A stretch of 58,314 nucleotides of DNA from Candidatus Micrarchaeota archaeon (GCA_040754495.1 JBFMCO010000014.1:1-58314), one strand, 5' to 3'. Counted from the stretch's first letter, positions 15,153 through 46,278 are shown. Program-made: numbers and translations. Notes: generated by a model not told the origin, from the letters alone.

Positions 15153-16874
15153 ATGATGAGCAAAGAATCGTTTGAAGTGGACCAGATAGCGCTCGGCGAA
15201 TGCGGGGGGGAGGTTGCCGGGATACCCATCAGGTACCTCACCCGCCACGGCATAATAGCGGGAAGCACAGGGACCGGGAAGAGCCGGGCCATGCAGGTGC
15301 TCGCGGAGCAGCTTGCGGAGGCCGGCGCGCACGTCTTCGTGTCTGATGTGAAGGGCGACGCCTCCGGGTTCTGCGTCCCGGCCTTCGAGCAGGCGGAAGT
15401 GCCGGCCGAGGCCGAGAAGAAGTGGGGCGAGCGCAACCGCCTCGCCCCGTTCGAGCCCTCATCATTCGGCGCGAACTACTGGAGCGTCTCGGACCGGTTC
15501 GCGAGGATGCGCTTCTCAATAAGCAAGGCCGGGAGCGTGCTTTTCTCCAGGCTGCTGTCCCTGAATCCGACGCAGGAGAGCCACCTCGCGATAGCGTTCT
15601 CCTACGCAAAGAAGCAGGGCATCGGCCTCGACACCCCGGACCAGCTCCTTGACGTCCTTGACGAGCTTGTCAAGACCAACCAGCGCGGCATCAGTCCCTC
15701 CAGCGTGTCGGTCATACAGCGGAAAATCATAGCCCTCCAGGAGTCGGGCCTCGGCCGGATGTTCGGAAGCCCGGACGTGCGCCTTGAGGATTTGGGCGGG
15801 CTGAACGTCCTCAACCTCAGCGACGCCCGCAACGACATGGCCGTCACGATGGCCCCTGCGTTCGTGCTGAAAAAGCTGTTCGACCTGCTTCCGGAAGTGG
15901 GCGAAGTGGAGAAGCCGAAGTTCGCGGTATTCTTCGACGAGGCGCACTACCTTTTCAAGGACTCGAACAAGTCGCTCCGGGACCTGATGGCGACCATCCT
16001 GAAGCAGATACGCTCGAAGGGCGTCGCGGTCTTCTTCGTGACGCAGGATGTCGGCGACATCCCGGACGAGATTCTCAGCCAGCTTTCGACCAAGATAATA
16101 TTCTCGCAGAAGGCCATGACCGAGAAGGGGAACGCGCGCCTGCGCGCCCTCGTGAAGTCATTCCCGAACCCAAAACCCGGCGCAAGGCTTGGCTCTTCAG
16201 CGGAGCCAAACCTTGCGGAAACCGGAAACCGGCTGCTGGAAACCATCAAGACCATGCCTCCGGGCGTCGCCCTGCTCTCCACGCTGGACGAGTCCGGCAA
16301 CCAGACCGAGCCGGCGCAAGTGCGCGTTTTCGCTCCTGCGACGACCATGGCGGTCGTTCCGGACGAAGCGCTGAGGAAGGCGACGGATGCGGAGCTGATT
16401 AAGAAATACGCGGCCGTGCAGAAGCCGAAGGCGCAGGAGAGGCCGAAAGCCCCGGAGCCAGGCCTTCAGGCAGAAACTCCGCGGCCGAAGGCCGAGGCAA
16501 AAAAACCAGCAAAATCCGAAACCCAAAAAACAGGACCCAAAACCCCAAAACCCGCACCTGCCGCCCCGCCTCCGGTCCGCGAAGAGGTCCGGATAAAGGA
16601 AGTTGTCGTAGAGAAAAAAGTCGTCAAAAAGAGCGGGCCGCCCATCCTTGATGGCGTGCTGGGTGGCCTCCTCAAGCTCCTGCGGTTCTTCCTGAAGGCC
16701 GGAGGCATGGTCTTCGACGCGTTCATGGCGAAGCCTCTCAGGGCGCTCTTCAAGTATCTCACGAAGAAGCCCATCCGGCTGCTCTACTTCGTCCTGCTGC
16801 TCATACTCCTTTACGCCCTGTACGTGAACTGGGCGAAGCTCCAGGCGCTGCTGGAAGCGATAAAACTCACCTAG
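15153..16874 (+). CDS. DUF853/HerA-like P-loop ATPase with low-complexity linker and C-terminal TM
   Basis: RHG.IAGSTGTGKS, FFDEAHYLF, IRSKGV..FFVTQ...DIP. Confidence 0.85.
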   Translation: MMSKESFEVDQIALGECGGEVAGIPIRYLTRHGIIAGSTGTGKSRAMQVLAEQLAEAGAHVFVSDVKGDASGFCVPAFEQAEVPAEAEKKWGERNRLAPFEPSSFGANYWSVSDRFARMRFSISKAGSVLFSRLLSLNPTQESHLAIAFSYAKKQGIGLDTPDQLLDVLDELVKTNQRGISPSSVSVIQRKIIALQESGLGRMFGSPDVRLEDLGGLNVLNLSDARNDMAVTMAPAFVLKKLFDLLPEVGEVEKPKFAVFFDEAHYLFKDSNKSLRDLMATILKQIRSKGVAVFFVTQDVGDIPDEILSQLSTKIIFSQKAMTEKGNARLRALVKSFPNPKPGARLGSSAEPNLAETGNRLLETIKTMPPGVALLSTLDESGNQTEPAQVRVFAPATTMAVVPDEALRKATDAELIKKYAAVQKPKAQERPKAPEPGLQAETPRPKAEAKKPAKSETQKTGPKTPKPAPAAPPPVREEVRIKEVVVEKKVVKKSGPPILDGVLGGLLKLLRFFLKAGGMVFDAFMAKPLRALFKYLTKKPIRLLYFVLLLILLYALYVNWAKLQALLEAIKLT

Positions 16875-17698
16875 AAATAGCCGCGTATCTCCCTGTTCAG
16901 ATTCTCCGCTTCCTTGAGCGCGGCATCCGCAGGCTTCCCCCCGTGCTTCTCGAAGGCATAGGCGAGCGATGAGGAGACGTTTATCCTGTGTATGGGTATG
17001 TTTCCCTTCACGGCCTTTAGGACCATGCCGAGGTCGCCGCCCTGCGCCCCGATTCCGGGGATGAGGAGCGGAACCTCGTTTTTGGTCAGCTTCGCAATCT
17101 TTTTTATCGCATCGCTCGTCGCCCCGGCCACAAGCCCTGTTTTCCACTCCAACGCCTTCTTCGCTACGTGTTCATAAAGTGTTACTCCCCGTTTTGGGGC
17201 GCCTTTTCCTAAAAGGCGCAACTCCTGGAAATCGGCAGCCCCCTTGTTCGATGTCCGGCAAAGAAGATACGCCAGCTTCCCCTCGCGCAAAAACGGCGAA
17301 ACCGAGTCATGCCCCATGTACGGGCTGAGCGTGATTGCGTCGGCCCCCCAGAAATCGTATGCCTCCCTCGCATAGGCCTCGCTCGTCTTCCCGATGTCCC
17401 CCCTCTTCGCGTCAAGGATGATAGGCACCTTTCCCTTATACCTCTGTATCAGCTCTTCCAGCACGAACAGCCCGTCGAAGCCGTACTGTGCGAAAAAAGC
17501 GTAGTTGGGCTTGAGCGCGGAAATCGCGTTCTCGGCAAGCAGCCTGTCTATTATATCATGGAAGAACGGGGTTATGGCGCCCTCGACCGTAGTGCCGGTC
17601 GCTATGCCGCTCACGCGCACGATGTCCGGGTCCACGCCGAAGCAGAGGATGGTCCTGCTCTCCTGCGCGGACTTTTCAAGCCGCTCCCTCATGTCCAT
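16871..17698 (-). CDS. pyrF: Orotidine-5'-phosphate decarboxylase
   Basis: LCFGVDP, KPNYAFF, DAKRGDIGKT, LIPGIGAQGG. Confidence 0.95.
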   Translation of the reverse strand: MDMRERLEKSAQESRTILCFGVDPDIVRVSGIATGTTVEGAITPFFHDIIDRLLAENAISALKPNYAFFAQYGFDGLFVLEELIQRYKGKVPIILDAKRGDIGKTSEAYAREAYDFWGADAITLSPYMGHDSVSPFLREGKLAYLLCRTSNKGAADFQELRLLGKGAPKRGVTLYEHVAKKALEWKTGLVAGATSDAIKKIAKLTKNEVPLLIPGIGAQGGDLGMVLKAVKGNIPIHRINVSSSLAYAFEKHGGKPADAALKEAENLNREIRGYF

Positions 17699-17816
17699 GG
17701 ATTGAGAACCGCTTTTCGCTTTATATGCCTTAGCTGCAGCCCGCACGTTTCAGAAATCAATAAAAAGCCGGAGGAGGCAAGTATAGTGCTCGGACCCTCA
17801 GCGGGCCCGGCATTGC

Positions 17817-25164: not shown

Positions 25165-25407
25165 GGGCTCGTAGCTCAGTCCGCCTTTTGGGAAAAGGCG
25201 GCCCAAAACCGACTGATGAAAAACGCTTCGCGTTTTTGGCCGAATCCAATCAAAAGGCGGGAGCAGCTTGGATAGAGCGGCAGCCTTCTATGCCCCCGGC
25301 ATCCGGTTTCCGGTTTCCAGTCCCGCGTTTCGGGTACTGGTTGCCGGCTGCAGGATGCCGGATGCGCAGGCAGCTGTAGGTCGGGGGTTCAAATCCCCCC
25401 GGGCCCG
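25165..25407 (+). tRNA. tRNA-Arg(TCT) with introns at 15/16 (25180-25266) and 37/38 (25291-25371)
   Basis: GGGCTCG/CGGGCCC, GCTC/GAGC, A20, GCAGC-CTTCTAA-GCTGT, GGGGG-TTCAAAT-CCCCC; near-perfect BHB for the D-loop intron. Confidence 0.95.
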
Positions 25408-33905: not shown

Positions 33906-35081
33906 ATGATAAAGCTTGAGCTGGACCGGAAAAAGCGTTCACTGCGCGTGAAGGAGCCGGCCGACGTCTCCTCGCTGCAGAACGGGTTTTACGGCCAGAT
34001 GAAAAGGGGCATAATATACCTCTCCCCAGAGGAAGCGCTGTACGTGATGGACATACGCAACGGCCGCTGCTACGACGGGGCGGGCAACGAATACACGTTC
34101 AACGACGTGGCGTCACTGTTCCTGAAGAACAGGAAGCTCCTCGCCCGCTACCTCACCTACAAGGACTACCGCGACAAGGGCCTGATACTCCGCAACGCCT
34201 CCGAGGCGGACGGGGCCTACGGGCGGAGCATCTCCATCCGCTACCAGAGCTCCGAGCTCTCGCTCGACTCGTTCTCGTTCCAGGGGCTCTTCTTCCCGAA
34301 CGACCTCATAACGCTTGTCGACGACGAGAGGGTGGGAAAGGAGCTCTATGAGCGCTTCTGGCTCGGCCAGTTCGGGACTTACAAGGCCGCGCACAGGGGC
34401 CGTATCTCCAAACTTGACATTTACGAGACAATCTTCCTGCTCAAGCATGGCGACCTCCGCCTGCGGAACGCGAAGCTCGGGGATGTAGAAAAGGCCGCCC
34501 GCAAGCGCATCAAGTTCTTCAGCGACATGTACCTTGTCTATGAGGACTGGCGCAAGCGCGGCTACGTAGTGAAGACCGGGTTCAAGTTCGGCACGCATTT
34601 CCGCATCTACTTCCCGGGCGCGTCGCCGGTCCGCAGCGAGGAGGAATGGATGCACTCGAAGCACGTCATCCACGTGTTCCCGAGGAAGCACAAGCTTATC
34701 ATCTCGGAGTGGGCAAGGGCCATCCGCGTCGCGCACAGCGTGAAGAAGACGTTCATCCTCGCCATCCCGGGCAAGAAGACGCCAATCGAGGTCAATCCGA
34801 AAAAGCGCAGGCTCGATTTCCTGCTCTATCACCGGAAGAAGGGCGGCATAGAGACGCCCAAGGACGGCACTCCGCGCTATTTCATGTACTCGCTGACCGA
34901 GGACGAGTATATCGGGGGCGAGGGGCTTGCAGAAGCCCTCGCCGAGTGCTCGCAGTCGGGCCTTGAGATGATGATGGCCATCTCGGACCGGGAGAGCAGC
35001 GTCACCTACTACGTGATAAAGGCCATAGACCTGCCCGGCAGCGAATACGAGTATTACGAAATCGAGTGGCTTCAGCCTTGA
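33906..35081 (+). CDS. endA: tRNA-intron lyase, epsilon2 (three-unit, ARMAN-type)
   Basis: 391 aa; KTGFKFGTHFRIY(Y235), H250, K281, and GQFGTYK(K160) loop. Confidence 0.92.
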   Translation: MIKLELDRKKRSLRVKEPADVSSLQNGFYGQMKRGIIYLSPEEALYVMDIRNGRCYDGAGNEYTFNDVASLFLKNRKLLARYLTYKDYRDKGLILRNASEADGAYGRSISIRYQSSELSLDSFSFQGLFFPNDLITLVDDERVGKELYERFWLGQFGTYKAAHRGRISKLDIYETIFLLKHGDLRLRNAKLGDVEKAARKRIKFFSDMYLVYEDWRKRGYVVKTGFKFGTHFRIYFPGASPVRSEEEWMHSKHVIHVFPRKHKLIISEWARAIRVAHSVKKTFILAIPGKKTPIEVNPKKRRLDFLLYHRKKGGIETPKDGTPRYFMYSLTEDEYIGGEGLAEALAECSQSGLEMMMAISDRESSVTYYVIKAIDLPGSEYEYYEIEWLQP

Positions 35082-43920: not shown

Positions 43921-44095
43921 AAAAGAACTTATAGAGAAACATTTGGTACGAAATCCTTATAAAATGGGATTCGGACGGCCTGCGCGAGGGCCGCTTGGCT
44001 GTGAGAAGCCGCCACGTGAACTCCTGGTCTGGTTGTCAATCCGAAGGATTGGCAAACGATTAGTTTTTTGGCCCCTTTTTTTCTAAAAAAGGGGA

Positions 44096-44254
44096 CGGGC
44101 CAGGTGAGATTTGAACTCACGACCTTCACCTTCCGCCTTTTAGGAAAAGGCGGCCAAAACGGCCTCTCCATTTCCCGAAATTAGGACGGTGCCGCTCAAG
44201 ACTCAGGGAAGCAGAACTGCTTGCCCCAATCTATCCAAGCTGAGCTACAGGCCC
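44096..44254 (-). tRNA. tRNA-Arg(CCT) with introns at 22/23 (44197-44230) and 37/38 (44132-44181)
   Basis: GGGCCTG/CTGGCCC, GCTC/GAGC, A20, GTGAG-TTCAAAT-CTCAC; good BHB at 22/23; U6-U67, G27-A43 and G32 are atypical. Confidence 0.75.
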
Positions 44255-46036: not shown

Positions 46037-46278
46037 GGGCCTGTAGCTCAGCTCGGTTAGAGCGACGGTCTTATACGACACGTTCTAGCACAGTTGTCTA
46101 TACGACTGAGTGCCTATGAAAGCCGTAGGTCCGGAGTTGCGCTTTTTGGGAAAAAGCGCCCAAAAACGTGTTGATGAAAAACGTTTCGCGTTTTTGGGAA
46201 TTTCCATCTGAAAGGCGCAACGGAATTCAAAAGAGTCGAAGGTCTCGACCTGCGATTCTGCGGCTCTCCGCAGGCCCA
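46037..46278 (+). tRNA. tRNA-Ile(TAT) with three introns: 37/38 (46076-46120), 53/54 (46137-46225), 59/60 (46232-46264)
   Basis: GGGCCTG/CAGGCCC-A73, ACGGT-CTTATAA-GCCGT, CGGAG-TTCAAAT-CTCCG after splicing; BHB-like motifs at each junction. Confidence 0.85.

Follow-up and report, generated by a model that had tools for sequence, protein, structure and literature searches.

How can DNA that forms the end of a tRNA intron also lie, in frame, inside a gene for a core enzyme of the same archaeon? This question is raised by pyrF of a Candidatus Micrarchaeota archaeon, which lies in the 58,314-nucleotide stretch analysed here as a whole and referred to as the window (GCA_040754495.1, JBFMCO010000014.1:1-58314). 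An earlier reading of this DNA, made from the sequence alone (the sequence-only reading), had proposed that one DNA unit ends up both as a tRNA intron and as a coding insertion. The matter is of general interest; a 2014 review called the mechanism of archaeal tRNA-intron transposition unknown, its action on DNA being no more than 'supposed' (PMC4090602), and in a 2026 census of Asgard introns, in which copying, mobile elements and reverse transcription were tested, the route of arrival was left open (bioRxiv 10.64898/2026.10.13.758758). In the present study, we consider with a probability of roughly 70% that the segment in pyrF truly belongs to a family of short structured DNA modules specific to Micrarchaeota, and that it was copied as DNA, is translated and lengthens a loop of the enzyme.

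The pyrF gene occupies positions 16871..17698 on the minus strand and encodes an orotidine-5'-phosphate decarboxylase of subfamily 2 with 275 aa, as assigned from the ORF list, Pfam, homologs and alignment. The longest ORF (16871-17746) begins at a GTG at 17746, but translation probably starts at the ATG at 17698, as it does in the orthologs. The product matches PF00215 (OMPdecase) with E = 8e-24; a total of 7994 homologs was found, the best named ones being from MAGs of Candidatus Micrarchaeota. The host genome is also a MAG, of 1.63 Mb in 72 contigs, 80% complete and with 59.5% G+C. The module copy in pyrF (17187..17221, minus strand) consists of a T, a perfect 9-bp hairpin (17199-17219), the motif CCCAAAAC (17191-17198) and GGGG, and its site is 161 codons into the 275-codon gene and not at the end of a tRNA intron. 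It is read in frame as L-R-L-L-G-K-G-A-P-K-R-G, so the peptide RLLGKGAPKRG that had been ascribed to this gene is indeed encoded by it according to the ORF translation. The net excess in length over insert-free PyrF is 21 nt, or seven codons (17195..17215, minus strand; residues 162-168, LLGKGAP). The peptide had also been placed in a loop of PyrF, and the AF2 model (mean pLDDT 88) agrees with this, as residues 161-173 form a surface beta-hairpin just before the helix 174-185, with low confidence (mean pLDDT 65) for residues 161-170, which span the insert. Judging from this model, the seven small or charged residues appear to lengthen the surface beta-hairpin, and the enzyme seems to tolerate them.

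That these residues are an insertion is borne out by the orthologs. In an alignment of 31 of them, LLGKGAP is extra between the conserved D-F-Q-E-L and L-Y-E motifs. When close homologs were classed by loop length, 89 of the 117 that could be scored had the short loop without extension; members of other families of the order lack it too, and at the insert the solved Leishmania homolog (PDB 3qw3) shows a gap of seven residues. The insertion claimed by the sequence-only reading therefore stands, and conservation of the loop in distant PyrFs was not seen, the distant relatives keeping the short loop. The loop of the insert-free sisters has the same length and consensus as that of the distant relatives; the ancestral state is therefore the short loop, and the inserts were gained or imported and are not what a long series of exact deletions has left over. 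The element peptide or a variant of it occurs in 10 of the 120 best homologs, with the same site, orientation and frame in all ten and with the same loop length in most, and these assemblies derive from JGI, NCBI, ENA and Logan samples. A junction scan of 99 species-representative genomes of the family matched the window's genome only, and a variant junction is carried by a relative in the genus (G077). Three further homologs (P0017, P0030 and P0040) have longer loops rich in Gly, Ala and Lys, which might be decayed module copies, the DNA of P0030 holding a weak trace of the module only. An odd loop rich in Gly, Ala and Lys, about as long as one with the insert, is also found in the pyrF of another Micrarchaeon, and just upstream of this pyrF lies a gene with a weak signature of a LAGLIDADG homing endonuclease (L332:1-152, minus strand).

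The copy with which the pyrF segment was first compared lies in the gene for tRNA-Ile(TAT) (46037..46278, plus strand), recognised by a partial RF00005 match at 46037-46133 and by orthologs. This gene has three introns, at ~46076-46120 (37/38), 46137-46225 (53/54) and ~46232-46264 (59/60), and the module copy (46137..46170, plus strand; profile E = 4.7e-9) forms the 5' end of the 53/54 intron. ARAGORN with default settings found none of the tRNAs of the window, and Rfam at gathering thresholds gave no match in the window; tRNA-Ile was missed by both because of its three introns. The bases of pyrF and tRNA-Ile quoted in the sequence-only reading are found in the window as written, and its 53/54 junction is supported by an orthologous T-arm without intron and by orthologs with an intron after GGAGT. 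The T-arm without intron is that of one relative in the genus, the orthologs with the intron number seven (GGAGTT in six), and the junction is ambiguous by 2 nt owing to the TT at both intron ends. Positions 17190-17225 (minus strand) and 46133-46168 (plus strand) are identical at 32 of 36 bases, and two of the four differences make up a compensatory stem pair. Two further tRNA genes of the window carry a module copy. One has introns and lies at 25165..25407 on the plus strand (the anticodon called by ARAGORN is unreliable), and its module copy (25180-25211, plus strand; profile E = 3e-9) begins inside the D-loop; the other lies at 44096..44254 on the minus strand with the module at 44131-44159, antisense, at the 3' end of an intron.

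Beyond the window, the pyrF copy shows every element of the design common to the family. This design is a T, a perfect hairpin of 9-11 bp and CC(C)AAAAC, often with GGG after it, in which the hairpin has a G+C-rich base, T4-6 facing A4-6 at the top and a loop of 3 nt. A leave-one-out nhmmer profile was built from 28 other copies with the pyrF copy excluded, and in the genome-wide search with this profile the pyrF copy was recovered at 17188-17221 with E = 5.5e-9, at rank 11 of about 35. A genome-wide search for the motif had been proposed as a check; with about 35 copies in the 1.63-Mb genome and the above E-value, a frequency equal to shuffled expectation is excluded. About 29 of these copies lie in or directly beside tRNA genes. 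The copies in tRNA genes form the outer ends of introns, with the hairpin outward and CCCAAAAC inward, and many introns carry one module at each end, inverted, around one or two central hairpins, which is a layout like that of miniature inverted repeats. Four copies are intergenic, one of them 4 nt past the stop of a small ORF, one past the stop of another gene and two in upstream regions. Among the 31 perfect hairpins of module design in the genome, 29 are flanked by the CAAAAC motif, and the two without it look like terminators. Within the window, a degenerate 28-nt pattern matches the pyrF and tRNA-Ile sites only (0 expected from 100 shuffles), and the hairpin core alone matches four sites, of which the two besides pyrF and tRNA-Ile are also in tRNA genes.

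The module pattern was found in 11 of 61 genomes of the family and in 3 of 23 genera, with 2-15 copies in each genome, and a reversed control pattern had no match in the same 61 genomes. In a scan with one genome per species, at least 111 module stretches were detected, and nearly all of the 80 listed loci are from MAGs labelled Micrarchaeota; the module family is restricted to the Micrarchaeota lineage. In 81 copies elsewhere the free outer stem pair covaries (CG in 54, GC in 25, other in 2). An assembly labelled 'uncultured Ruminococcaceae bacterium' contains two exact module matches (L213, USCI01000081.1; L261, USCI01000008.1), which could be due to chance, bin contamination or mislabelling. 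Among about 126 copies inspected, pyrF is the sole coding host, and dispersal into many unrelated protein genes was not seen. Three candidates for a second coding host were rejected: the copy on contig C50 is inside an open frame of 667 codons, at a point before the true start codon of a transporter gene, the one on C29 is 4 nt beyond the stop of a small zinc-ribbon ORF, and the resemblance of a sequence in genome G174 is due to chance. The C50 copy is at the end of a structured-looking non-coding stretch upstream of the Na/Pi-type transporter gene (C50:30535-30735 in the window's genome, G000; L205:2001-2236), and this stretch matches the C/D-box RNA sR44 weakly, below threshold (E = 0.017).

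These results, the profile match (E = 5.5e-9) among them, confirm that one nucleic-acid unit occurs both in tRNA introns and in coding sequence, and they also narrow this unit. What is shared is the terminal module of about 31-35 nt (T, 9-bp hairpin, CCCAAAAC and GGG), and not the whole intron of 89 nt. Four exon bases, GGAG, had been counted as part of the match; as part of the unit they had to be given up, as GGAG and the TTG after it are native Gln-Glu-Leu codons of pyrF that are found in insert-free orthologs too. Since GGAG and TTG are present in the insert-free alleles, they are not part of the transferred unit, and with about 25 intron sites the four-base coincidence has, by a rough estimate, a chance of about 0.1. 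Nor is the tRNA-Ile copy the closest counterpart of the pyrF copy, because those in a tRNA-Thr intron (C52) and in the intergenic region of C50 are closer, matching the pyrF copy over the whole hairpin.

The last part of the earlier proposal, that the unit is a mobile DNA rather than a tRNA-only RNA, holds for copying at the DNA level; mobility in the sense of a transposon is not supported, as neither a transposase nor a target-site duplication was found. No target-site duplication is visible at the pyrF junctions, the 80%-complete genome has no match to the Y1 (IS200/RAYT) transposase family PF01797, and no reverse transcriptase was found in the genome. Four TnpB-like (Cas12f1-like_TNB) ORFs are present in the window's genome (C66:1722-1919, C5:28975-29172, C46:48913-49107 and C53:7361-7546), none of them directly next to a module copy, the nearest (C66) being 700-800 nt from a module-bearing tRNA. 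That the module moves is something we infer.

The DNA-level copying is argued from what has been kept in the insert. In the window and in two relatives (L112 and L193), 31 bases over the module are identical, although the identity of the genes is about 70%. Where the residue is the same, identical codons make up 44-47% outside the module and 10/10 inside it (about 3e-4 per pair). Changes elsewhere preserve the pairing. In L210 the stem is of the commoner CCGCC/GGCGG type, with the outer pair changed from G:C to C:G relative to the window, and this swap is synonymous on one side and replaces Ala by Gly on the other. In L083 the loop triplet is different and a Leu codon is missing, and the stem is still perfect. 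The copy in L194 is decaying. A 72-nt version is present in L111, where the hairpin loop contains two inner hairpins; its pieces match pieces of tRNA introns of the window's genome in two collinear segments, and the tRNA-Ile intron of G150 has the same expanded design. All of the stem types seen in pyrF (GCGCC, CCGCC and expanded) also occur at tRNA-Ile 53/54 across the genus, and compensatory stem changes were found both among the copies of the family and among those in pyrF. By these comparisons of aligned alleles, it is the nucleotides and the hairpin pairing of the insert, and not the peptide, that are conserved, and such conservation requires copying at the DNA level.

The inserts are scattered over the PyrF tree, which was built without the loop columns. 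The ten insert-bearing sequences fall in 8 separate places and need 10 changes, at least six of which are forced by well-supported branches, and constraining them to one clade is worse by a delta lnL of 555 (AU p = 1.9e-6). An insert-bearing sequence, P33, is separated from its insert-free sister P69 by very short branches. In the pair P5 (with insert) and P28 (without), the pyrF genes are 89% identical in DNA and the flanks are about 90% alike up to the changed patch, and the two differ over a whole stretch of 30-45 nt, which is more than the module alone. The changed patch of P5 (the module and the next 15 bases) is about 89% like the P7 allele and unlike its own sister, and this suggests the import of a short patch between pyrF alleles. 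Judged from these alignments, one or more of the gains looks as if a patch of 30 nt had given way to one of 45 nt, and not like a clean insertion. The scatter on the tree could in part come from recombination between pyrF alleles rather than from independent gains.

It must be asked whether the segment reaches the protein at all. Bulge-helix-bulge introns, which at their boundaries have two 3-nt bulges with a 4-bp helix between them, or a relaxed form of this, and which are removed by EndA and a ligase, are known in protein genes of Archaea, the cbf5 mRNA of Crenarchaeota being spliced in this way, and the module could likewise be a small intron of this type in the pyrF mRNA, cut out by an EndA of broad specificity. 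The genome does have EndA genes, one of them in the window (33906..35081, plus strand; 391 aa; PF01974, E = 3e-30; PF02778, E = 2e-8), which by its length and domains would fit the three-unit Micrarchaeum type, and a second, weaker match to EndA domains was noted on contig C31. The three-unit EndA of Micrarchaeum cleaves relaxed motifs (PMC3239211). Moreover, the 3' arm of the module occurs a second time at the far end of the tRNA-Ile intron, where it can pair with the 5' arm, and a native pyrF stretch about 45 nt downstream could provide a similar pairing of 6-7 bp. The pyrF copy itself, however, forms a perfect, closed hairpin whose loop has 3 nt, without bulges and without the remainder of an intron; its minimum-free-energy fold has no splice motif and a stability as in shuffled sequence (z = -0.5), and cuts at tRNA-like positions would remove the conserved helix 174-185. 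Furthermore, the ten insert alleles (seven of them read as DNA) are all in frame and free of stops, including the one of 72 nt, and this speaks against splicing, as a spliced element would not need to keep the frame. The argument from the frame is weakened by ascertainment, because out-of-frame copies would not show among full-length proteins. Scanning for splice motifs was of little help, as the strict bulge-helix-bulge scanner returned one motif 168 nt wide (2.0 in shuffles) and none at the element and also misses the genuine tRNA-Ile introns, and the relaxed mode gave more than 100 chance matches. Taken together, splicing of the segment from the mRNA is unlikely, and we give the small-intron explanation a low probability; from its frame and context, the pyrF module is probably translated in frame and not spliced.

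If the segment is translated, its preservation and patchy distribution could still have causes other than recent copying. The hairpin might be a selected functional site in pyrF, such as a site bound by a protein that acts on the introns too, or a signal for translation or stability, with recombination between alleles making it patchy. The conservation of nucleotides and pairing across genes that are about 70% identical would suit this, as would the patch of P5, which is closer to the P7 allele (89% identical) than to its sister, and the copies just past stop codons and tRNA 3' ends, where a processing or termination signal would be expected. Most close relatives, on the other hand, are without the hairpin, the copy of L194 is visibly decaying, and we know of no candidate protein that would bind it; we regard such a function as improbable, and it concerns the maintenance of the module and not its origin, so that it is compatible with the copying of a DNA module favoured here. 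Much less room is left for a single ancient insertion in the ancestor of the family followed by many precise losses, with the sequence kept by chance or codon bias. The ten inserts share site, orientation, frame and mostly loop length, and palindromes are prone to deletion, as this history would have it; but monophyly of the inserts is rejected by the AU test, the outgroup-like loop of the insert-free sisters is not what one deletion after another would bring back, the losses would far exceed the 8-10 gains otherwise required, and codon bias cannot yield 10/10 identical codons against a background of 44-47%. As for plain coincidence, in which a loop selected in the protein happens to resemble the module, or an assembly artefact at a repeat, nothing but the shortness of the element is in its favour, and we find it scarcely credible; the independent profile E-value of 5.5e-9, the continuation of PyrF homology on both sides of the element and the recovery of the insert from assemblies of JGI, NCBI, ENA and Logan samples contradict it.

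Copying of a family module as DNA thus being the preferred reading, the module would have been copied from another copy in the genome or imported as a short patch from an occupied pyrF allele, and such an arrival or spread would have recurred at this one codon, several times and in different lineages. As its nucleotides are identical where the surrounding codons have diverged, the module, once in place, would be either young or maintained like the other copies, through ectopic conversion or through selection acting on the hairpin. Local similarity may have guided template switching or short-tract conversion, with the occupied allele then spreading laterally. The native pyrF site resembles the 5' strand of the T-arm and the loop of tRNA-Ile (TCC-GGAGTT-AAA), the module following GGAGTT in both, and by our estimate chance alone would give a genome a few sites with such a resemblance. 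We tentatively prefer the route in which this resemblance aids template switching or short-tract conversion, as the leading candidate among doubtful ones. Random insertion followed by selection is insufficient, as there is a single coding host with recurrence at one codon, and a site-specific factor is missing from such an account; simple insertion is not the full story either, since P5 and P28 differ over the whole stretch of 30-45 nt. Two simpler ideas on the site were rejected, namely a single clean insertion junction with microhomology on the right side, as the alleles differ over 30-45 nt, and a native hairpin serving as a 'loop target', as RNAalifold on 46 insert-free alleles gave no consensus structure.

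On a bolder and somewhat less probable proposal, the module would be the working end of an active, site-selective copying of DNA that creates new tRNA introns in Micrarchaeota, an archaeal counterpart of the 'introners', and its resemblance to the T-arm and T-loop of tRNA-Ile would make the pyrF codon a decoy for this process. If this were true, the occupied and empty alleles would be the first natural before/after pairs for the mechanism of tRNA-intron gain in Archaea; such alleles are available for comparison in close relatives, both at the pyrF site and in the T-loop of tRNA-Ile. The presence of an intron-end module in a protein gene would in any case be direct evidence of copying at the DNA level, as splicing cannot be what preserves the module there. 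The pyrF copy may also be taken as evidence that it is the splicing filter, and not the insertion step, that confines most copies to tRNA genes. In addition, it would be a small case of a selfish repeat that adds residues to an archaeal core enzyme.

By analogy, the closest known counterparts of the pyrF module are the Rickettsia palindromic elements (RPEs), which are palindromic repeats lying in frame within many protein-coding genes (PMC10969869). Both are short palindromic families with copies in frame and free of stops inside housekeeping enzymes, at positions predicted to fit the protein fold, with presence varying between related genomes and with no transposase of their own. The features expected of an RPE-type element were found here, namely a dispersed palindromic family and a copy that keeps the frame, has no stop, lies in a surface loop and is missing from orthologs. 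The coding copy of the module is, however, about 35 nt long (72 nt in one relative) compared with about 150 bp in RPEs, it has one coding host and not dozens, its host is an archaeon, and the main home of the module is in tRNA genes, as intron ends.

Copies of the transposed tRNA introns of Thermoproteales in coding or intergenic DNA have, to our knowledge, not been reported. These introns (Fujishima et al. 2010) are known to us as summarised in PMC4090602, and they served as the positive control in bioRxiv 10.64898/2026.10.13.758758. As far as that summary goes, the two cases have in common a gain thought to occur at the DNA level by an unknown mechanism and a splicing endonuclease of broad specificity in the lineage; they would differ in that the module is found in DPANN Micrarchaeota, that a terminal hairpin module and not whole introns is shared, and that module copies are also in a protein-coding gene and in intergenic DNA. 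The present case would thus extend the picture of intron transposition in Thermoproteales (PMC4090602) to DPANN archaea, with an endonuclease of broad specificity of their own (PMC3239211).

Bacterial-type repeat systems of the kind of REP/BIME with RAYT (Y1), and MITEs, share with the module a hairpin with a short conserved flanking motif in many dispersed copies, and the full introns, being two inverted terminal modules around a core, are similar to MITEs. They differ from it in that neither a Y1 transposase (in the 80%-complete genome) nor a target-site duplication was found here, and in that the module copies are mostly inside RNA genes and not extragenic. The cbf5 intron is also a tRNA-intron-type sequence in an archaeal protein-coding gene, but it interrupts the frame and needs splicing, whereas the element in pyrF keeps the frame, shows no splice motif that could be recognised and is likely to be translated.

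The T-loop of tRNA-Ile appears, on the sequences compared, to show the same turnover as the pyrF site. In 20 genomes of one genus, this loop has no intron in one, an intron with the module after GGAGT in about eight (GGAGTT in seven), one with the module after TTCAA(T/A) in about six and an unrelated intron in about five, and some tRNA-Ile genes of the genus have the extra 59/60 intron, as in the window. These T-loops make up a compact data set on the gain and loss of introns. The introns of tRNA-Ile and of the second tRNA gene have in common an inner block with a C-box-like TGATGA (46171-46212 and 25212-25250); in tRNA-Ile a CTGA follows about 30 nt past the TGATGA, and a C/D-box guide RNA is possible, with no match at the Rfam gathering score. 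Directly past the 3' end of the third tRNA, at 44062-44094, there is a related hairpin of the design CCCC and T6-7 facing A6-7 and GGGG, then CCAAAAAAC, and another tRNA of the genome has one likewise (C22:18774-18806, G000); these hairpins past tRNA 3' ends may be terminators or processing signals.
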